From: Acidimicrobiia bacterium
GTDB lineage: Bacteria > Actinomycetota > Acidimicrobiia > Spongiisociales > UBA5794
Direction: 5' to 3'
Assembly (NCBI GenBank): GCA_026985095.1
Contig: JALSQW010000012.1
Location: 51,810 to 115,809 of the forward strand
DNA: 64,000 bases
A program made the position numbers and the translations under genes. Shown one piece after another: positions 11,552 to 22,810 of the stretch. The notes beneath the pieces are model-generated. The model saw only the letters and a list, made by a program, of their open reading frames with translations, ran no database searches and was not told where the DNA came from. The first letter of the stretch is position 1; each line of letters starts with the position of its first letter.

Positions 11552-12385
11552 TCAGGAGATGACCAGCTCCGGATGCGAACGCACCCGGGGGCGCCGCCGC
11601 TCCACCTCGTCGGCGAGGGACTCGAACGCCGCCGACGCCTCCGAGTCCGGCGCGGACACCACCACCGGCTTCCCCTCGTCGGCACCCTCACGCAACGCCG
11701 GCACGAAGGGGATCCGAGCCAGGAGGGGCACCTCCAGCTCGGAGGCCAGACGCTCCCCTCCCCCGGCTCCGAACAGCTCGTAGCGGGTGCCGTCGTCGCC
11801 GGTGAACCACGACATGTTCTCGACGACGCCCATGATCTCCTGGTTCACCTTCTCGGCCATCAAGCCCGCCCTGGCGGCGACCCGCTGGGCGGTCGGCTGC
11901 GGAGTCGTGACGATGATCGTCTGGGAGCGCGGAAGGAACTGGCTCATGGAGATCGCCACGTCTCCGGTGCCCGGCGGCATGTCGATCAACAGGTAGTCCG
12001 GATCGTTCCATGCGACGTCGTTCAGGAACTGCTCCAGCGCCTTGTGCAGCATCGGGCCGCGCCAGATCACCGCCTGGTCCTCCCGCACGAAGTAGTCCAT
12101 GGAGATCACCGCCACCCCATGGGCGACCGGCGGCACGAGCGTGTCCTCGAGGACCTGGGGAGGCTCCGCGGCGCCGATCATGCGCGGGATCGAGAACCCC
12201 CACACGTCGGCGTCGATGATCCCGACCGTGCGACCACGCCCGGCGAGCGCGATCCCGAGGTTCGCCGTCACCGACGACTTGCCCACCCCGCCCTTGCCCG
12301 ACGACACGGCGATGACCCTCGTGGTGGAACCGGGCTTGCCGATGCCGACCGATCCTCTGCCTGGCTGTGCGTCCACCACTTCCAA
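11552..12385 (-). CDS. mrp: Mrp/NBP35/ApbC-family Fe-S cluster carrier ATPase
   Basis: ORF track, 277 aa. Deviant Walker A SGKGGVGKSSVTANLG, plus DADVWGFSIP and ..DYLLIDMPPGTGD. Confidence 0.88.
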   Translation of the reverse strand: MEVVDAQPGRGSVGIGKPGSTTRVIAVSSGKGGVGKSSVTANLGIALAGRGRTVGIIDADVWGFSIPRMIGAAEPPQVLEDTLVPPVAHGVAVISMDYFVREDQAVIWRGPMLHKALEQFLNDVAWNDPDYLLIDMPPGTGDVAISMSQFLPRSQTIIVTTPQPTAQRVAARAGLMAEKVNQEIMGVVENMSWFTGDDGTRYELFGAGGGERLASELEVPLLARIPFVPALREGADEGKPVVVSAPDSEASAAFESLADEVERRRPRVRSHPELVIS

Positions 12386-12388
12386 CTC

Positions 12389-12470: not shown

Positions 12471-13166
12471 ATGAACCTCGAGCAGATGGACCGCCAGATC
12501 GCCGACATCGCGTCGAGCCTCGGCGACACGACCCGCCGCGGCATCTTCATCTCGGTCCGCGAGTCCGCCGATCCCATGACCGCATCCCAGATCGCGACGC
12601 TGTTCGGCATCCATCCCAACGTCGCCCGACATCATCTCGACCGTCTCGTCTCCGATGGCTACCTTCGGGTCACCCGTCGCCGCGCCCAGGGCCGAGCGGG
12701 ACCGGGCGCGGGTCGCCCCGCCAAGCACTACGAACCGACCGACAAATCGATCAGCCTGCAGTTCCCCGTCCGCAGGTACGACCTCCTCATCGACCTCCTC
12801 GTCCGGGTCATCGAACGTCTCGCCCCCGAGGACGCGCCCCAGGTCGTCGAGGAGATCGGGATCGAGTACGGGCGAGAGATCGCCGCCGAGCTGGGGTTGC
12901 CCGACGACACCGGCTACGAGGCCGCTGCGCTGGCGGTGGCCAAGGCCATGACCGGGGTGGGGTTCGAGACCGAGGCGGACGCCGACGGTCGTCGACTCCT
13001 CACCAAGTACTGCCCCTTCGGCGAGGCCGCCAAGACCCATCCGCATCTGGTCTGCCGCCTCGATCAGGGCATCGTCAAGGGCCTTCTCGAGGCCGGTCGA
13101 CGGCGGCCGGTCGCCGTGGTGATGCCCCACGCCGACGAGGACGACCACTGCGTCACCGAGCTGTAG
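12471..13166 (+). CDS. Winged-helix (ArsR/SufR-like) transcriptional regulator with a Cys/His-containing C-terminal domain
   Basis: ORF track, 231 aa. N-terminal wHTH (MTASQIATLFGIHPNVARHHLDRLVSDGYL). C-terminal ..KYCPFGEAAKTHPHLVCRLDQG...DHC. Confidence 0.6.
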   Translation: MNLEQMDRQIADIASSLGDTTRRGIFISVRESADPMTASQIATLFGIHPNVARHHLDRLVSDGYLRVTRRRAQGRAGPGAGRPAKHYEPTDKSISLQFPVRRYDLLIDLLVRVIERLAPEDAPQVVEEIGIEYGREIAAELGLPDDTGYEAAALAVAKAMTGVGFETEADADGRRLLTKYCPFGEAAKTHPHLVCRLDQGIVKGLLEAGRRRPVAVVMPHADEDDHCVTEL

Positions 13167-13225: not shown

Positions 13226-13780
13226 ATGGCATGGATCGAAACGGTGCCCGAAGGCGAGTGGGACGGTGCGCTGGCGGACCTCCGCGGCCGGGTGGTCGAT
13301 CCCGTCTACGACCGCGTCGACCACATCATGCAGATCCACTCGCTCGATCCCGACGCCATGGCGGCGCACGACGGGCTCTACCGATCTGCGATGCGCAGCA
13401 CGAAGACGCTCCGCAGGGTCGATCGCGAGCTCATCGCCTTCGTGGTCAGCTCGATCAACGACTGTCACTACTGAACGGTGCATCACCGGCGCGGTCTGCG
13501 CCGGCTCCTTCGGGACGACCATCTCCTGGCGACGATCGAGGCTGATTGGCGAAGCGCCCCGCTCGACGACCGTCGCCGAGCGATGCTGACCTACGCCGCC
13601 AAGCTGACCGAGACGCCGGCGGCGATGGAGCAGGGGGACGTCGAGGCCCTCCGCGATGCCGGGTTCACCGATCGCGACATCCTCGACATCGCCCAGGTGG
13701 TCGCCTACTACGCCTACGCGAACCGGATCGCCGACGGCCTCGGCATCGAGCTCGAGCCGTGGATCCCAACCGACGGATAG
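13226..13780 (+). CDS. AhpD/carboxymuconolactone-decarboxylase-family peroxidase-related protein with an in-frame TGA at 13472-13474 (candidate selenocysteine; alternatively a pseudogene)
   Basis: Two same-frame track ORFs: the tail of 12416-13474 (MAWIETVPEGEW...VSSINDCHY*) and 13478-13780 (.HHRRGL...). Joined, they give a 184-codon protein collinear with the family. The TGA replaces the second Cys of the conserved N-x-C-x-Y-C-x-x-H-H motif. Confidence 0.7.
13486..13504 (+). other. Candidate bacterial SECIS hairpin
   Basis: CCGGCGC-GGTCT-GCGCCGG: a perfect 7-bp stem with a 5-nt G-first loop. The stem starts 11 nt after the TGA. The loop resembles the GGUCU apical loop of the E. coli fdhF SECIS as I recall it. 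Confidence 0.5.
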
Positions 13781-13822: not shown

Positions 13823-16504
13823 TCAGCTCCGGGCCATACGCCGGAGGACCATGTGAAGGATGCCGCCGTTGCGCAGGTACTCGACCTCGACGGGGGTATC
13901 GACCCTGGCGAGGGCCTCGAACGACACCACCGTGCCGTCGCTGCGGGTCGCCCGCACCGGGATCAGTGCCCGGGGCGCCAGCTCGTCGTTCACGTCGATC
14001 TCGAACGTCTCGGTGCCGTCGAGACCGAGGGTGTCGGCGGTCTCCCCCACCGGGAAGGTCAGCGGCACCACCCCCATCATGACGAGATTGGAGCGATGGA
14101 TCCGCTCGAACGACACCGCCAGTACCGCCCGGACCCCGAGGAGGTAGGTGCCCTTCGCCGCCCAGTCGCGCGACGACCCCATGCCGTAGTCCTTCCCGGC
14201 CAGGACCAGCAGTGGCACGCCCTCCTGCCGGTAGTGCATGGCGGCGTCGAACACCGGCTTCACCTCGCCGTCGAGGAAGTCGGTGGTCCAGCCACCCTCG
14301 GTCCCCGGAGCGATCTGGTTCCGGACCCGGACGTTCGCGAACGTCCCTCGCATCATGACCTCGTGGTTGCCGCGCCGCGACCCGTAGCTGTTGAACATCG
14401 GCGGGGCGACCCCCTTCGACAGCAGGTACCGACCGGCCGGCGAATCCGCCGGGATCGCGCCGGCGGGACTGATGTGATCCGTCGTGACCGAATCGCCGAG
14501 CTTCAGCAACACCCGCGCCCCGACGATCGGTTCGATCGGGGCCGGCTCGGGCGACAGGTCCTTGAAGAACGGCGGCTCCTGGATGTAGGTGCTGTCCGGA
14601 TCCCAGTCGTAGAGGATGCCCCCCGTGGTGGGGATGGCCTGCCATTCGTCGTTGCCTTCGAACACCGCGGCGTACTCGCGCTCGAACTCCCCCCGGGAGA
14701 CGGACCGTTCGATGATCTCGGCGATCTCGGCCTGGGTCGGCCAGATGTCGCGCAGGTACACGGGGCGACCCTCGGGATCCTCGCCGATCGGTTCGTTCAC
14801 CAGGTCGATGTCGACGGTCCCGGCGATGGCATAGGCGACCACGAGGGGCGGCGAGGCCAGGTAGTTGGCCCGCACGTAGGGGCTGATCCGTCCCTCGAAG
14901 TTCCGGTTGCCCGACAGCACGGACGCCACGACGAGGTTCCCTTCGTCGATCGCCTCGGCGATCGGCTCGGGCAGCGGGCCCGAGTTGCCGATGCAGGTCG
15001 TGCAGCCGTACCCGACGAGGTAGAAGCCCATCGCCTCCAGGTCCTGCATCAACCCGCAGTCCTCGAGGTAGTCGGTGACGACCTTCGATCCGGGAGCGAG
15101 GGACGTCTTCACCCACGGCTTGCGGAAGAGGCCCTTCTCGCGGGCACGCCTCGCGACGAGGCCGGCGCCGACCATGACCTCGGGGTTGGAGGTGTTCGTG
15201 CAGCTCGTGATCGCCGCGATCACCACCGCGCCGTCGCCGAGTTGGAACGTCTCCCGCTCGTAGGTGACCTCGACCGCCCCGGTGCCTTCCCTGGCCGGAG
15301 GCCGCAAACCGCCTTCCAGGTCCCGATGCCACTGCTGCTTCATGTCCGCCAGATCGATGCGGTCCTGCGGACGCTTGGGTCCCGCCAGCGACGTGGTGAC
15401 GGTCGACAGGTCGAGCTCCAGCTCACTGCTGTAGGTGACCGATCGCGCGTCGTCCCGCCACAACCCTTGCAGCTTGGCGTACTGCTCGACGGTCGCCACC
15501 AGGGGCTCGGGACGGCCGGTCAGTCGCAGATAGTCGAGGGTCCGGTCGTCGACCGGGAAGAACCCGACGGTGGCCCCGTACTCGGGGCTCATGTTGGCGA
15601 TCGTGGCGCGGGTGGCGACCGGCATGTCGGCGAAGGCCGGACCGTAGAACTCCACGAACTTGCCCACCACGCCGTGCTCGCGGAGCATCTGGGTGACGCG
15701 CAGCACGAGGTCGGTGGCGGTGACGCCCTCGCGGAGCTTGCCGGTCATGCGGAACCCGACGACCTCGGGAAGCAGCATGTAGATGGGCTGTCCGACCATG
15801 ACCGCTTCGGCTTCGATCCCGCCGACGCCCCAACCCACGACGCCGAGCCCGTTGATCATCGTCGTGTGCGAGTCCGTCCCGACGAGCGAGTCGGGGTACA
15901 ACACGCCGTCGGCGTCCCACACGACCTTGGCGAGGTACTCGAGGTTGACCTGATGCACGATGCCGGTGTCGGGAGGGACGACGTGGAAGCGATCGAAGGC
16001 GGACTGGCCCCATTTGAGGAACTCGTAGCGTTCCCGGTTCCTGCTGAACTCCTTCTCGGCGTTGATCTTGAGGGCGAGGGGCGTGTTGAACACGTCGACC
16101 TGCACCGAGTGGTCGATGACGAGGTCGGCGGGAACCTGGGGATTGACCTTCGTCGCCTGCGCCTCCTCCCCGGTCATCGAGACGATCGCCGAACGCATGG
16201 CGGCCAGATCCACCACCGAGGGGACGCCGGTGAAGTCCTGCAGCACGACCCGGGCCGGCATGTAGGCGATCTCGGTCTCGCCGACCTTCGTGGCGTCGTA
16301 CTGGGCGACGGCACGGACGTCGTCGTCGGTGAACACCCGTCCGTCGTGGTTCCGAAGGACCGACTCCAACAGCACCTTGATCGTGTAGGGCAACGCGTCG
16401 ATGTCGCCCATGTCCTTGAGGGCGTCGAGCGCGTAGACGACCCGATCCCCGAGGGGCGTGGATACGGTTCGCCGGGCTCCGAAGGGATCGTGGACGTTCG
16501 TCAT
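13823..16504 (-). CDS. acnA: Aconitate hydratase A
   Basis: ORF track, 893 aa. The full-length aconitase/IRP pattern includes ..[10 protein letters not shown].. and ..[12 protein letters not shown].. Fe-S ligand motifs. Confidence 0.95.
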
Positions 16505-16641: not shown

Positions 16642-17238
16642 TCAGTCGCCCCAGAACCGCTGCTCGCGCCATGGATCCCCGTACATGTGATAGCCGTTGC
16701 GCTCCCAGAACCCGGGGCGGTCATCGGCCAGCAGCGTGAAGCCCCGCACCCACTTGACGGATTTCCAGAAGTACAGGTGAGGCACGACGAGCCGGAGCGG
16801 CCAGCCGTGCTCCGGCGCCAGCGGCTCGCCGTCGAAGCGGTACGCGAACACCGATCCCTCCGCGAGGAAGTCGTCGATCGGGAGGTTGGCGGTGAACCCG
16901 TGCTCGGCGTGGACCAGAACGTGGGTGGCGCCGTCCAGCGGCTCGAGGTGATCCCACACGGTCCGGGTCGCGATGCCCGTCCATGTCGTATCGAGTTTGG
17001 ACCACTTGGTCACACAGTGGATGTCGGCGCGGATGCGCACCGGCTCCATCGCGACGAACTCGTCGTAGGTCCAGCGCCGTTCGTCGACGACGAGACCGCC
17101 GACCGTGAAGTCCCACCGTTCGAGGTCCACGTCGGGCACGTTCCCGACGTGGAGGACGGGAAAGCGCGACGTGACGTACTGGCCCGGCGGGATCCGTTCG
17201 GGGTCGACGTCGTCGGGGATGCGGCGGAAGAGCTTCAT
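16642..17238 (-). CDS. Sulfite-oxidase-like molybdopterin-dependent oxidoreductase (small cytoplasmic form)
   Basis: Track ORF 16642-17571. The homologous part begins at MKLFRRIPDD (start 17238). It includes ..IHCVTKWS.. (Mo-ligand Cys) and ..HGWPLRLVVPHLYFWKSVKWV.. . The upstream 111 codons look like junk. Confidence 0.8.
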   Translation of the reverse strand: MKLFRRIPDDVDPERIPPGQYVTSRFPVLHVGNVPDVDLERWDFTVGGLVVDERRWTYDEFVAMEPVRIRADIHCVTKWSKLDTTWTGIATRTVWDHLEPLDGATHVLVHAEHGFTANLPIDDFLAEGSVFAYRFDGEPLAPEHGWPLRLVVPHLYFWKSVKWVRGFTLLADDRPGFWERNGYHMYGDPWREQRFWGD

Positions 17239-17298: not shown

Positions 17299-17922
17299 AT
17301 GACCCAGACCACCGAGCCCGCCCAGCCCGACCATGTCGAAGCCGCTCGGCGGCTGCCGCGATGGGTCCTGGCGCTGGCGGCGGTCGCCATGGTCGTCGGC
17401 GTCGTCGGTATCGCGACGCTCGTCGTACGCGGGGGCGACGATCAGACGATCGGTACCCTCCCCGACCTCGCCGCCTTGGGGCTGGAGGACAACGGTCCGT
17501 CGGCGGCCGCGATGGCCCCCGACTTCACCGTCCCCACCCGCGACGGCGGCACCTTCACGCTGTCGGAGCATCTAGCGAACGACGGCAGACCGGTGTTCCT
17601 GAACCTGTGGGCATCGTGGTGTCCTCCGTGCCGAGCCGAGATGCCCGCCATCCAGCAAGCATCGATCGACCATCCCGACGTCCTGTTCATCGGTGTCTCG
17701 GTCCAGGACGACCGGGTCGCGGCTCAGGCCTTCGCCGATGAGATCGGGATCACCTACACGATCGGGTACGACGACGACAACGTGGTCGACGCCGGCTACG
17801 CCCCTCTCGGCCTCCCGGCCACCTATCTGATCTCCGCCGACGGCGAGATCGTCGAGCGCCTCTTCGGCGGCTTGACCGAGCAGCAGATCGAGGACCGGCT
17901 GGCCGCCGCGTTCGGAGGCTGA
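17299..17922 (+). CDS. TlpA/ResA-family membrane-anchored thiol:disulfide oxidoreductase
   Basis: In the frame of track ORF 16687-17922. The ATG at 17299 gives MTQTTEP..., one TM helix, and the thioredoxin motif NLWASWCPPCRAEMP. Confidence 0.85.
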   Translation: MTQTTEPAQPDHVEAARRLPRWVLALAAVAMVVGVVGIATLVVRGGDDQTIGTLPDLAALGLEDNGPSAAAMAPDFTVPTRDGGTFTLSEHLANDGRPVFLNLWASWCPPCRAEMPAIQQASIDHPDVLFIGVSVQDDRVAAQAFADEIGITYTIGYDDDNVVDAGYAPLGLPATYLISADGEIVERLFGGLTEQQIEDRLAAAFGG

Positions 17923-17923
17923 C

Positions 17924-18133
17924 GTGGACGTCATCTCCGACATGGTGGCCAAGGTCTGGGAGGTCAGGGTCTCGGCCGGTGAAGCGGTGGAGGAAGGCGA
18001 CGAGCTCCTCACCTTGGAGTCGATGAAGATGGAGATCCCCGTCCGCGCGCCGGCGGGTGGACGGGTCGTCGCCGTCAACGTGGCCACCGGAGAGACGGTC
18101 GGCGAAGGCGACGTGCTGTTGGTGATCGACTGA
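17924..18133 (+). CDS. Stand-alone biotinyl/lipoyl carrier domain protein
   Basis: ORF track, 69 aa (GTG start). Biotinylation motif LESMKMEIPV. Confidence 0.8.
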   Translation: MDVISDMVAKVWEVRVSAGEAVEEGDELLTLESMKMEIPVRAPAGGRVVAVNVATGETVGEGDVLLVID

Positions 18134-19602: not shown

Positions 19603-20826
19603 TCAGGCCGCGACGATGCCGCGATGGACGAGGACCCGTCGCAGGGAGGCGGCGATCTTGGGGTCGTACTCGTAGGCGGATCCCTGGTGGATCCGTTCGA
19701 GGGCCTCGATCGGCGAGAGCCCCATCTCGTTGACCCCCTGGTCGTAGGCGCTGGCGACCTTGATGATCTTGGAGGCGACGGGCACGTCGGGATCCCGCTC
19801 GGTCCCCGGCGTCCGGTAGGGCTGGTACTGCTGGGCGACGAGTTCGGACACGTGGCCCAGGTAGGGGGCTTCGGCGACGATCTGGGATCCCCACCGGGCG
19901 ATGTCCTCGTCGGTGTAGCCGGCCTTGATGATGGCAGGCTCGTTGAGGGTGATCCGGCCGACGTCGTGCAGCATCGAGGCGTACTCGAGCCAGGTGACCT
20001 CGCTGGGATGGAGACCCAGCTCCTTGGCCATGGCCATGGCCAGGTCCTGGGTCCGGTAGGAGTGACCGATGGGGGCCAGTCCGGCGACCTCGGGGATCTG
20101 GGCGAGGGCCCGGATCGTCTGGCTGTAGGTGATCCGCGTCGAGTCGTACCGTTCGAACGCGACGTGGCTGAACCCGTACGGGACCAGGGCGAGAGGGAAC
20201 GCCCACAACTGGAGCACGGGCCACGACAGCGCGAAGAGCCCGCCGGCCGAGATGAGCGCCACGACGACGGTCCAGTCCTCGAGGGCCAGCAACCACAGGT
20301 ACCTGGGCGACAGATCCGCACGTTCGAGACCGACGAGTGCCGACACGATGGCCCGCACGAGGAACCACACGGTCCCTGCCGCGGCGAGGGAGACGAGGTG
20401 CTCCCATCCGCCTTGGAAGTCGTCCGTGACCGCGTCGAGGACCCAGAAGAAGGTGAGGCCGTAGGCCGCCATGGCCACGGTCTCGGCGAGGAAATCGCCG
20501 TCGCGTCGCCCCAGCCGGCTGGTCCGGAGCTGGACGACGATCCATGCCAGCGCCATGCCGACCGAATAGGCGACGGCCACGTCGAGGGGCTCGGCGAGGA
20601 GGATGGAGGCGGCGACGGCGGGCCCGATCCCGAGGTTGATGCGATGGCCCGAGGGCGTGGGCACGTCGAGGAGGTGGGCGACGGCGATGACGATGGCCCA
20701 CAGGAGGACCCCGGCCGGGTCGGCGATGTCGCCCACGACTGAGCCGCCGCCGAGGAACACGCCGGTGGCGACGAGCAGCATCCCGAACATGCCGACCGAT
20801 GCGGCGCGGATGCGAACCTCAGCCAT
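19603..20826 (-). CDS. Polytopic membrane protein with a degenerate HD(-GYP-like) domain
   Basis: ORF track, 407 aa. The N-terminal multi-helix region is paralogous in architecture to the next gene. The HD domain has GHSYRTQDLA and MLHDVGRI but lacks the HHExxDGxGYP block (QQYQPYRTPG in its place). Confidence 0.7.
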   Translation of the reverse strand: MAEVRIRAASVGMFGMLLVATGVFLGGGSVVGDIADPAGVLLWAIVIAVAHLLDVPTPSGHRINLGIGPAVAASILLAEPLDVAVAYSVGMALAWIVVQLRTSRLGRRDGDFLAETVAMAAYGLTFFWVLDAVTDDFQGGWEHLVSLAAAGTVWFLVRAIVSALVGLERADLSPRYLWLLALEDWTVVVALISAGGLFALSWPVLQLWAFPLALVPYGFSHVAFERYDSTRITYSQTIRALAQIPEVAGLAPIGHSYRTQDLAMAMAKELGLHPSEVTWLEYASMLHDVGRITLNEPAIIKAGYTDEDIARWGSQIVAEAPYLGHVSELVAQQYQPYRTPGTERDPDVPVASKIIKVASAYDQGVNEMGLSPIEALERIHQGSAYEYDPKIAASLRRVLVHRGIVAA

Positions 20827-22258
20827 GGCTGTGCTCGCGGCGGTCGAGGGGGGCGACGGGGAAGTCCCTGCCGTGGACCTGGTCGGCTTCGCGCATGGCG
20901 GCGACGCCCTCTTCGGCCATCCTCCTGGCCTCCTCGTCGGTGAGCTCGAGGACCGAGCCGAAGTTCCGGCCGGATCGTTCGATGGCGACGATGAACGCCT
21001 CCACCACCTCGGGATCGAACTGGGTGCCGGCGTGGCGTCGGAGCTCCTCGAGAGCGTACCGCTGGCTCATCGCCACCCGGTAGGAGCGGGTGGTGGTCAT
21101 GGCGTCGAAGGAGTCGGCCACGGCGATGATGCAGGCTTCGACCGACGGGGTCTCCCCGGGACCGTGCCCGGCGCCGTGGTACCCGCGGCCGTCGTAGTGG
21201 GCATGGTGGTTGGCGGCGATCTCGACCATCGGATGGAGGAACTCGATGTGGTCGAGGAGGTCCTCGACCAGATGGACGTGGCGCTTCATCACGTCGTACT
21301 CGTGCTCGTCGAGGCGACCCCGTTTGCGGATGAGCTCGCGGGGGACGGCCAGCTTGCCGACGTCGTGGATGAGGGCGGCCCAGCGGAGCCGCTCGAGCCG
21401 GGTGCCGTTGAAGCCCATCTCCCGGCCGATCATCTCGGAGTACATCGCGACCCGTTCGGTGTGGCCGCGGGTGTAGAGGTCCTTGGCCTCGAGGGCCTTG
21501 ATGAACCCCTTGAGGGTGGATTCCTGGGCGAGGCGGAGCATGGCGAAGGACTCGAAGGCCATGTAGCCGGTGAAGAAGACGATGAAGATGAAGGGCAACA
21601 TGACGCTGCCGACGAGCAGGTAGGCGGCCCCGAGGAGCCCGCCGAGGAACCCCATGGCGACGGTGCCGAGGTTGATCTGGATGAGGTGGGACCAGGGTCT
21701 GGTCATCTTCTGGCCGTAGACGCGGTCGACGATGAAGGCCACGAGGCGGTAGTTGACGATGCCGTTGACGAGGGCGGCGATGGCGGAGCCGGCGACCACG
21801 ATCCACAGCCGGCCCGGGGTCAGGTCCCAGCCCGGCGCGGGCCCGTCGGCCAGCCAGAGGAACCCGGCGAGCACGGCGGCGGCCGCGGCGTTGGAGAGCA
21901 CGAGTTGTCCGAAGTTGACGGCAGGCTGGAACCAGCGTCGGCCCTTGATGTCCTTGGGCGTGAGGAGCCCGAAGAGCGCCATGGACGCAGCGGCGAGGAT
22001 GCCCGCTCTGGGCCCGAAGACCACCGCGGCGGTCATGGTCACCATCGCACCCGGACTCCCCCGCAGCCGGTCGTTGACCTCCACCGATCGCCAGGAGAAC
22101 ACGGCATACGCGGCGGCGAACGCGGCCCACAGCCACGATGGCTGCGGGAGATCCTGCGAGAGCCACAGCGCGGCCATCGTGCCGATGCCGGCGCTGCCGA
22201 ACCCGACCGCGAAGCGGTGTTTCGTCGACGGGAGGATCTTGGACAGTCCTCGTGGCAC
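20819..22258 (-). CDS. Membrane-anchored HD-GYP domain protein (putative c-di-GMP phosphodiesterase)
   Basis: ORF track, 479 aa. GHTERVAMYS, LIHDVGKLAVP, and NHHAHYDGRGYHG (a GYP-like block reading GYH). 8-nt overlap with the downstream paralogue. Confidence 0.8.
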   Translation of the reverse strand: MPRGLSKILPSTKHRFAVGFGSAGIGTMAALWLSQDLPQPSWLWAAFAAAYAVFSWRSVEVNDRLRGSPGAMVTMTAAVVFGPRAGILAAASMALFGLLTPKDIKGRRWFQPAVNFGQLVLSNAAAAAVLAGFLWLADGPAPGWDLTPGRLWIVVAGSAIAALVNGIVNYRLVAFIVDRVYGQKMTRPWSHLIQINLGTVAMGFLGGLLGAAYLLVGSVMLPFIFIVFFTGYMAFESFAMLRLAQESTLKGFIKALEAKDLYTRGHTERVAMYSEMIGREMGFNGTRLERLRWAALIHDVGKLAVPRELIRKRGRLDEHEYDVMKRHVHLVEDLLDHIEFLHPMVEIAANHHAHYDGRGYHGAGHGPGETPSVEACIIAVADSFDAMTTTRSYRVAMSQRYALEELRRHAGTQFDPEVVEAFIVAIERSGRNFGSVLELTDEEARRMAEEGVAAMREADQVHGRDFPVAPLDRREHSHG

Positions 22259-22810
22259 GGGGGGTGCTCCTGTGTTCGGTTCGGGGTGGACGGCGGCGGG
22301 GCTTCCCGGGCCGCGAGATCAGCTAGTCGACTCTGAGGTTGGCCACGCCTGCCAGGGGTCCGGCGGCGAGGTCCGCAAGGTATCGACGGATGTTCTCGTA
22401 TCTACGCTTCACGAACCTCTCCATGGGGGGATGTCCTCGGTCGGCGGCATCGTCGCCGCCTGCGGGGATACGCATACGCTCCGCTGGATCGGTTGTGTGT
22501 CGAGACGGCCCGGTCCGCCACCACCTCCCACTCGCCCGGCTCTCACCGGGCGAAACTCGCTTTTCCTGGTGCTCGCCTGGCCCCACCCGGATCGATCGGT
22601 GTCCCCAATCCGGTGCGGTCCTCGGACCGCTCGATCCACTCGCCCGTGGGTCGGCCGCCGCGCGGCCTGTGGACAAGTTAGGCGGGAGCCCTCGCTCGCG
22701 CAAGGGAATATCGGCCCGGATCGGCTCGGACCCAAGGCCCTTGTGGTGCCCTCGGCCGGCAGAGCCGGATCGTCGGCCGACACTCCGCGTCGAACCTCCC
22801 GCTACGCGGC

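Follow-up and report, generated by a model that had tools for sequence, protein, structure and literature searches.

An AhpD-like gene of an Acidimicrobiia bacterium with an in-frame TGA in its redox motif and a conserved SECIS-type hairpin

Introduction

AhpD-like proteins with a CxxU motif (COG2128), in which U is selenocysteine (Sec), were described in 2005 as a new family of selenoproteins, on the basis of 27 sequences from the Sargasso Sea (PMC1088965), 'AhpD-like 1' is among the most abundant selenoprotein families of the Global Ocean Sampling (GOS) data with 299 sequences (PMC2398784), and a 2026 review lists the AhpD-like family with the domain TIGR01926 (PMC13188914). Here we describe a gene of this kind in a 64-kb stretch of DNA from an Acidimicrobiia bacterium (contig JALSQW010000012.1; the whole stretch is called the window below), in which an in-frame TGA at positions 13472-13474 takes the place of the second Cys of the CxxC motif and is followed by a hairpin of the kind known as a selenocysteine insertion sequence (SECIS). 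The AhpD-like 1 selenoproteins (COG2128/TIGR01926) and the window gene belong to the same family and share the CxxU motif, a SECIS-like hairpin directly downstream and widespread Cys homologues. Nothing essential differs, except that the window copy is unannotated and comes from an Acidimicrobiia-type metagenomic population, and that the SECIS core of its clade is unusually invariant. The gene is thus a typical, mis-annotated member of a long-known family and no new kind of biology; an earlier note on this DNA, made from its letters alone, had likewise held that the family is not new, and the three papers cited above bear this out.

Two further groups of relatives help to place the protein. 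The Cys-type proteins of known structure, 2PFX, 3C1L (Mlr4105), 2OYO, 2PRR and DR1765 (6K40), have the motif SSIN-C-x-Y-C-x-x-H, which aligns with the window protein, and they carry Cys where the window gene carries Sec. AhpD of Mycobacterium tuberculosis (TIGR00777) has the AhpD core domain and an active site of the CxxC type in common with the window protein and is a lipoamide-using reductase of AhpC, whereas neither an AhpC partner nor lipoamide-dependent reduction has been demonstrated for the TIGR01926 subfamily.

Results

Structure of the gene

The gene occupies positions 13226-13780 of the forward strand (184 codons, Sec at codon 83), a delimitation that draws on the sequence and its translation, on TIGR01926 and Pfam CMD, and on homologues in the PDB. 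It opens with ATG at 13226, crosses the in-frame TGA and proceeds without further stops to a TAG at 13778-13780. The peptide around the TGA reads ...VVSSINDCHY*TVHHRRGLRR..., and the N-terminus MAWIETVP is conserved among homologues. Cys80 (TGT, 13463-13465) and Sec83 (TGA) delimit the redox motif C-H-Y-U (13463-13474, forward strand), and the C-terminal 101 codons (13475-13777, forward strand), with the conserved His86-His87 at 13481-13486 and the rest of the stretch matched by TIGR01926 and the PDB homologues, are made only if UGA is read as Sec. The putative bacterial SECIS hairpin, CCGGCGC-GGTCT-GCGCCGG (13486-13504, forward strand), starts 11 nt past the TGA and has a perfect 7-bp stem (5' arm 13486-13492, 3' arm 13498-13504) that closes a GGUCU loop (13493-13497), the first G of which (13493) is at a distance of 21 nt from the UGA's U. 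The earlier note had described two same-frame open reading frames (ORFs) split only by the TGA and joining to 184 codons, and a perfect 7-bp hairpin 11 nt beyond it with its loop about 21 nt from the UGA; sequence and translation agree with this description in every coordinate. Within the window this is the sole site where coding-like sequence crosses an in-frame TGA and two adjacent genes do not explain it.

Protein family and active site

With Cys in place of the stop, the 184-aa product matched the NCBIfam model TIGR01926 'peroxidase-related enzyme' at 138.7 bits (cutoff 81.8); the match covers residues 31-175 without a break and so runs across the TGA. The joined protein also matched Pfam CMD (52.5 bits) and the AhpD core domain TIGR00778 (37.2 bits, cutoff 27.8). 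In the PDB, the homologues 2pfx, 3c1l, 6k40, 2oyo and 2prr were aligned over residues ~30-176 with E-values from 1.8e-29 to 2.3e-19; for 2pfx (1.8e-29) and 3c1l the alignment covers residues 30-172 with Cys opposite the TGA, and in the three printed alignments (2pfx, 3c1l and 6k40) it is the Cys of N-x-C-x-Y-C-x-x-H that faces the TGA. The joined protein is therefore collinear with the AhpD/CMD peroxidase-related family, as had been claimed, and the TGA stands at the second Cys of CxxC, opposite Cys in homologues and solved structures alike. The Pfam CMD match and the AhpD-like PDB chains agree, at the level of sequence, with the all-helical AhpD/CMD fold.

Two neighbouring profiles help to delimit the subfamily. 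The orthodox AhpD profile TIGR00777 (M. tuberculosis type) scored 21.2 bits, under its cutoff of 191.95, and the gene is accordingly AhpD-like rather than an AhpD orthologue; the profile of the AhpD-related CFYUT (seleno)protein, NF041238, scored 56.1 bits against a cutoff of 175 and describes another selenoprotein subfamily. The nearest characterised relative is Deinococcus radiodurans DR1765 (PDB 6k40, E = 2.9e-23), the deletion of which raises H2O2 sensitivity and the complementation of which needs the CxxC cysteines, according to PMC8945050, which cites Zhao et al. 2020. By analogy, the window protein is most likely a thiol/selenol oxidoreductase that helps to defend the cell against peroxide or oxidative stress, its predicted redox pair being Sec83 and Cys80.

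Geometry of the hairpin and comparison with fdhF

The published model of bacterial SECIS elements gives an apical loop of 3-9 nt with G at its first two positions, an upper stem of 4-16 bp, a spacing of 16-37 nt between UGA and loop, and a minimum free energy of at most -7.5 kcal/mol (PMC13188914, Fig. 2). The window element, with its GGUCU loop, 7-bp stem, spacing of 18 nt and folding energy of -14.0 kcal/mol, falls within this model on every count, and the usual bacterial geometry that had been proposed for it holds in full.

The sequence from the TGA onwards reads TGA CAC GGC CCA TCG GTT GCA GGT CTG CAC C in E. coli K-12 fdhF and TGA ACG GTG CAT CAC CGG CGC GGT CTG CGC C in the window. The two sequences share GGT CTG as codons +7 and +8 and the start of GGTCTGC at nucleotide 19 past the TGA, and in each the TGA is followed by 11 nt, a 7-nt 5' arm and a loop starting GGUC. 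The likeness to the fdhF GGUCU loop, which the earlier note had pointed out, is therefore real when set against the actual E. coli sequence (TGA, 18 nt, GGTCTGC), and the register is identical. The two elements differ in the stem, which in the window is a perfect G+C-rich helix of 7 bp under a 5-nt loop, whereas the fdhF stem, as paired here, seems to have a bulged U. The protein family that hosts the fdhF element is unrelated to the AhpD-like one, and binding of SelB to the window hairpin is a prediction only.

Conservation of the TGA codon

Searching the genome collection for relatives yielded 50 homologous loci (loci are given below by L-numbers and database proteins by P-numbers). TGA stood at exactly the Sec codon in 33 of them, and the remaining 17, mainly from Alphaproteobacteria, had the Cys codons TGC or TGT. 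The TGA loci comprise L001-L027, from Acidimicrobiia-type Actinomycetota and Chloroflexota, and further L041-L043 and L045-L047, from Acidobacteriota, Caldilineae, Nannocystaceae (a myxobacterial metagenome-assembled genome, MAG), SAR202 and Planctomycetota. In the Acidimicrobiia-type set of 21 genes (the window gene and 20 loci), every gene had exactly one in-frame stop, always TGA and always at codon 83-86, and the ORFs ran on to about codon 183-195; frameshifts or additional stops were found in none of the 21.

The collection was also scanned with the SECIS pattern TGA-N13-GGCGCGGTCTGCGCC. Among the 120 pattern matches listed, 84 were further AhpD-like carriers of CxxU...HH(R/G)RGLR, which is a lower bound on their number. 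The other 36 were considered as possible members of other families with the same SECIS module and rejected, as they look like chance matches in non-coding frames. The earlier note had left it to the relatives whether they keep TGA with a hairpin or have a Cys codon, and each was found in its place: orthologues keep TGA and hairpin in 21/21 Acidimicrobiia-type genes and in at least 84 more by the pattern scan, and more distant homologues have TGC or TGT at the same codon.

Selection on the hairpin

The five codons for R-R-G-L-R (+5 to +9 after the TGA) were nearly fixed across the 21 genes (CGG in 19/21, CGC in 21/21, GGT in 21/21, CTG in 21/21 and CGC in 19/21), with a third-position entropy of 0-0.55 bit; at other conserved Arg or Leu positions of the same gene, 4-5 different codons were used (1.6-1.9 bit). 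The 7-bp helix was paired in 90.5% of the alignment cells, against 20-52% when the partners were slid by 1-3 columns. Compensatory changes occurred from G-C to C-G in L020, from C-G to U-A in L004, L006 and L008, and from G-C to U-A in L178. The peptide RRGLRR is unchanged in the close Cys (TGC) relatives P0004 and P0008 (loci L051-L054), its codons having drifted to CGGCGTGGGCTG or CGTCGGGGCCTG (CGG CGT GGG CTG or CGT CGG GGC CTG), and in L051-L054 the perfect hairpin with its GGUCU loop is gone. In other clades with TGA, the peptides differ and the corresponding site is taken by conserved hairpins of their own. Read together, these comparisons show selection on the hairpin at the level of RNA.

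Translation beyond the TGA

Over 11 comparisons that involve the window gene, the ratio of non-synonymous to synonymous substitution rates (dN/dS) beyond the hairpin was 0.17-0.57, and the N-terminal half gave similar values. The orthologue at L001 (MAG JALVQZ01), 89% identical to the window gene, has 12 synonymous and 12 non-synonymous codon differences downstream of the TGA (dN/dS 0.30), and there is hence no sign of neutral decay in that part. Decay, which the earlier note had named as a possible sign against a functional gene, was sought as frameshifts or extra stops in the 21 genes and did not appear, and purifying selection acts on the half beyond the TGA. Among 34 TGA-bearing homologues, the position of the first canonical start codon past the TGA varies between codon +1 and codon +46. 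TGA terminates 30 of the 36 Pfam-supported genes of the window, so the genetic code is standard.

Selenocysteine machinery in carrier genomes

An E. coli SelA sequence was searched against all retrieved DNA, and matches were checked with NCBIfam models. A selA homologue was found on a 2.3-kb contig of an Actinomycetota MAG (L166/L179, DASUTZ010000216.1), in which the AhpD-like Sec gene is followed, ~40 nt downstream and in the same orientation, by selA; among ~100 carrier loci this adjacency is unique to that contig. With the SelA of L166 as probe, 80 loci were recovered, 4 of them in an assembly that also holds an AhpD-like TGA carrier. These are DATKBL01 (selA locus L180, carrier L018/L092), where selA is followed by a selB cut by the contig end; CALAEC01 (L183, carrier L162), where selA is followed by a full-length selB; and the Chloroflexota assemblies JAPOOU01 (L199, carrier L026) and JAPOVL01 (L203, carrier L023). 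Where the flanks of the Actinomycetota loci are long enough, selB directly follows selA. The selA products scored 421-500 bits with TIGR00474 (cutoff 268) and selB scored 308 bits with TIGR00475 (cutoff 242). Genomes with the AhpD-like Sec gene therefore do have Sec-insertion genes.

ARAGORN detected no tRNA-Sec in 33 carrier loci, and ARAGORN and Rfam detected none beside the actinobacterial selAB loci; the carrier MAGs with selA yielded neither selC nor selD. Probes for E. coli SelD and SelB had no match in the window or in the first loci. Sec machinery has been reported for Actinomarinales, an order of the class Acidimicrobiia (bioRxiv 10.64898/2026.04.03.716425), and for mycobacteria (PMC13449736); the earlier note's remark that Sec use is uncommon in actinobacteria is accordingly true only in part.

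Annotation and spread

In the ENA assembly of the same population (ERZ27262647) the locus is annotated as two pieces of 82 aa and 65 aa, the splitting by automated annotation that the earlier note had expected. The aconitase next to the gene led to a contig of 120.7 kb in that assembly, whereas an ORF close to the end of the window had no match. About 100 of the best 120 database relatives are C-terminal fragments of ~101 aa, and the 'full-length' entries P0002, P0003 and P0005-P0007 show Trp at the Sec site, most likely through translation of TGA as Trp. Public databases thus mis-annotate the clade systematically, giving either ~101-aa fragments or Trp in place of Sec; as a result, the use of Sec in Acidimicrobiia is underestimated and an abundant antioxidant family has its active site obscured. 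The near-invariant TGA-N13-GGCGCGGTCTGCGCC offers a simple and fairly specific gene probe, 84 of the 120 listed matches being true carriers.

Among the matches listed, the identical 15-nt SECIS core occurs in Acidimicrobiia, in 12 Planctomycetota (including L170) and in 3 Acidobacteriota (L088, L121 and L158), and its loop is that of E. coli fdhF, in identical register. The proteins of the Planctomycetota and Acidobacteriota carriers are only 53-70% identical to the window protein. An identical core in such distant proteins suggests either horizontal transfer of the gene together with its SECIS or very deep conservation. That the gene with its embedded SECIS travels between phyla as a self-contained selenoprotein cassette is a tentative idea, which we hold to be possible and somewhat doubtful; if true, it would mean a near-universal SelB recognition code and a cassette that is functional on arrival. 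L170 is a cultured isolate, Engelhardtia mirabilis Pla133 (NZ_CP036287.1), in which Sec insertion and the advantage of Sec over Cys are directly testable.

Discussion

We consider it highly probable that the window carries a functional selenoprotein gene, AhpD-like, in which TGA is read as Sec by means of the conserved hairpin. During translation, the hairpin at 13486-13504, which begins 11 nt after the UGA and exposes a GGUCU loop, would act as a bacterial SECIS and would recruit the complex of SelB, GTP and Sec-tRNA(Sec), through predicted binding of SelB, and UGA-83 would be decoded as Sec instead of stop. The full-length protein of ~20 kDa would use Sec83 together with Cys80 and the following His residues (C80-x-x-U83), probably in defence against peroxide and oxidative stress as in the Cys-containing relatives.

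Several observations weigh against this account. A comparable perfect hairpin (at least 7 bp, G-first loop) follows 26 of the 1121 TGA trinucleotides of the window (2.3%), whose GC content is 70%, and the folding z-score of the 65-nt region is only -0.85, no better than shuffled controls; the stability of the hairpin, taken alone, is therefore ordinary for the GC content and is weak evidence. Covariation is limited, with 4 of the 7 helix pairs invariant and a covariation score only moderately above the shuffle control (13 of 500), and it is limited because the hairpin element is almost invariant. The bulged U of fdhF (U17) is not present in the window hairpin. In the E. coli fdhF SECIS, the upper stem needs a bulged U in its 5' arm to function, and the likeness to fdhF accordingly concerns loop and register and not the entire element. 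Rfam SECIS models gave no match in the whole window at gathering thresholds and only noise in 13380-13620 at permissive ones; bacterial SECIS elements are poorly represented in Rfam. The window holds no second candidate gene with an in-frame TGA, and no other such genes were found in the carrier flanks either. No selA, selB or selD was detected by a Pfam scan of ~55 ORFs of the window, a housekeeping region, and no tRNA-Sec by ARAGORN and Rfam in the 64 kb, the single tRNA there being tRNA-Arg; the Sec-decoding capacity of the organism, and with it Sec insertion, is something that we infer by analogy with its relatives. Against these points stand the comparative data, which we regard as decisive and which lift the observation well clear of chance.

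Doubt remains mainly over the Sec machinery, which the organism of the window may or may not retain. If it had lost that machinery while the sequence stayed intact, the gene would be a recent relic giving only a truncated 82-aa peptide. The lack of sel genes and tRNA-Sec within the window would fit this, and the TTA found at the codon in the syntenic locus L178 shows that a Sec site can be lost; on the other hand, TGA, a perfect SECIS and an intact ORF have all been kept, the dN/dS of 0.30 downstream of the TGA in the L001 comparison speaks against neutral decay, and related carrier MAGs encode selA and selB. We give a relic a small chance. Readthrough of the UGA without Sec, whether TGA is reassigned genome-wide to Trp or Gly or the hairpin stimulates near-cognate suppression, is still less probable and in our judgement very unlikely. 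It could call on the Trp in the five database entries named above, of which translation of TGA by the gene caller is the simplest account; TGA ends most of the Pfam-supported genes of the window, homologues have Cys and not Trp or Gly at the site, the hairpin fits the SelB-type SECIS model and the fdhF register, and carrier genomes encode SelA and SelB.

The remaining explanations have next to no probability left. A simple nonsense mutation, which would make the gene a pseudogene, was suggested by a gene of known family split by a single in-frame stop and reported by gene callers as two fragments, but the same TGA codon recurs in 33/50 loci and at least 84 further genomes, the 21 genes are free of extra stops and frameshifts, the downstream half is under purifying selection, and selection on the hairpin as RNA has relaxed only in genes with TGC at this codon. 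This explanation is effectively refuted. As little can be said for a true split gene, in which the TGA would stop translation and the C-terminal half would restart separately to give a two-subunit protein: a GTG does lie two codons past the TGA in the window, yet the restart position is so variable among the 34 TGA-bearing homologues that it leaves a restart unsupported, and a split would remove the second redox residue of CxxC, which sits at exactly this codon in Cys homologues, and would leave unexplained a hairpin that is conserved at the RNA level and lost in TGC forms. It is just as improbable that the conserved nucleotides reflect protein constraint on RRGLRR, or some RNA function other than a SECIS. 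The peptide is indeed conserved even in Cys forms; its highly degenerate Arg, Gly and Leu codons are fixed only in TGA genes, though, the TGC genes having different codons and lacking the perfect hairpin and GGUCU loop, and other TGA clades combine different peptides with different hairpins at the equivalent place.

Genomic neighbourhood and further observations

The gene is preceded at a distance of 59 nt by a gene for an HTH_20 (ArsR/IclR-like) regulator of 231 aa (12471-13166, forward strand; Pfam), whose C-terminal ~150 residues match no Pfam family. The same arrangement of HTH_20 and Sec gene occurs in L001 and L178 and not in most other carriers, and the synteny of L178 with the window extends over WhiB, DUF3107, Mrp, HTH_20 and CMD. 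The regulator may be functionally linked to the Sec gene; as a conserved operon partner it was rejected, since only L001 and L178 are syntenic with the window. Two other candidates for an operon partner were likewise rejected, namely aconitase X (AcnX), which is convergent in 11 loci and not co-transcribed, and selA, which adjoins the AhpD-like gene on one contig only.

A classical aconitase gene (13823-16504, reverse strand) is convergent to the Sec gene in the window, and likewise in L001. The large and swivel subunits of aconitase X (PF04412 and PF01989) are convergent in 11 other Acidimicrobiia loci, in the downstream flanks of L003, L004, L006-L010, L013, L016, L017 and L019. Upstream, an Mrp/NUBPL-type Fe-S carrier ATPase is encoded in the window (11552-12388, reverse strand), L001 and L178. 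These Fe-S dehydratase and carrier neighbours may be a coincidence or may reflect a functional link. A functional tie of the Sec gene to Sec metabolism or to the protection of Fe-S dehydratases is more speculative and would build on the single selA adjacency and the recurrent aconitase/AcnX neighbours.

Two carriers deserve separate mention. One Acidimicrobiaceae MAG (PACE01, MAG NAT100) has two AhpD-like Sec genes with the same SECIS core on separate contigs (L090 and L168). In the window-syntenic relative L178 (2501-3049, GCA_024275815.1, protein P0001), TTA (Leu) replaces TGA at the Sec codon, and the GGUCU hairpin is retained with a compensatory pair (CGUCGC/GCGACG); the TTA reflects either Sec that was recently lost or a mistake in the assembly.

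About 3.5 kb from the Sec gene lies a small redox cluster, in which an Oxidored_molyb gene (16642-17238, reverse strand) adjoins a gene for a membrane-anchored AhpC-TSA/Redoxin-like protein (17299-17922, forward strand) and, directly after it, a stand-alone biotin/lipoyl-domain ORF of 69 aa with an ESMKM motif (17924-18133, forward strand). Farther on, two neighbouring HD_5/HD-domain proteins, possibly HD-GYP-like, are encoded on the reverse strand (19603-21066 and 20819-22318), next to a DUF5317 gene.

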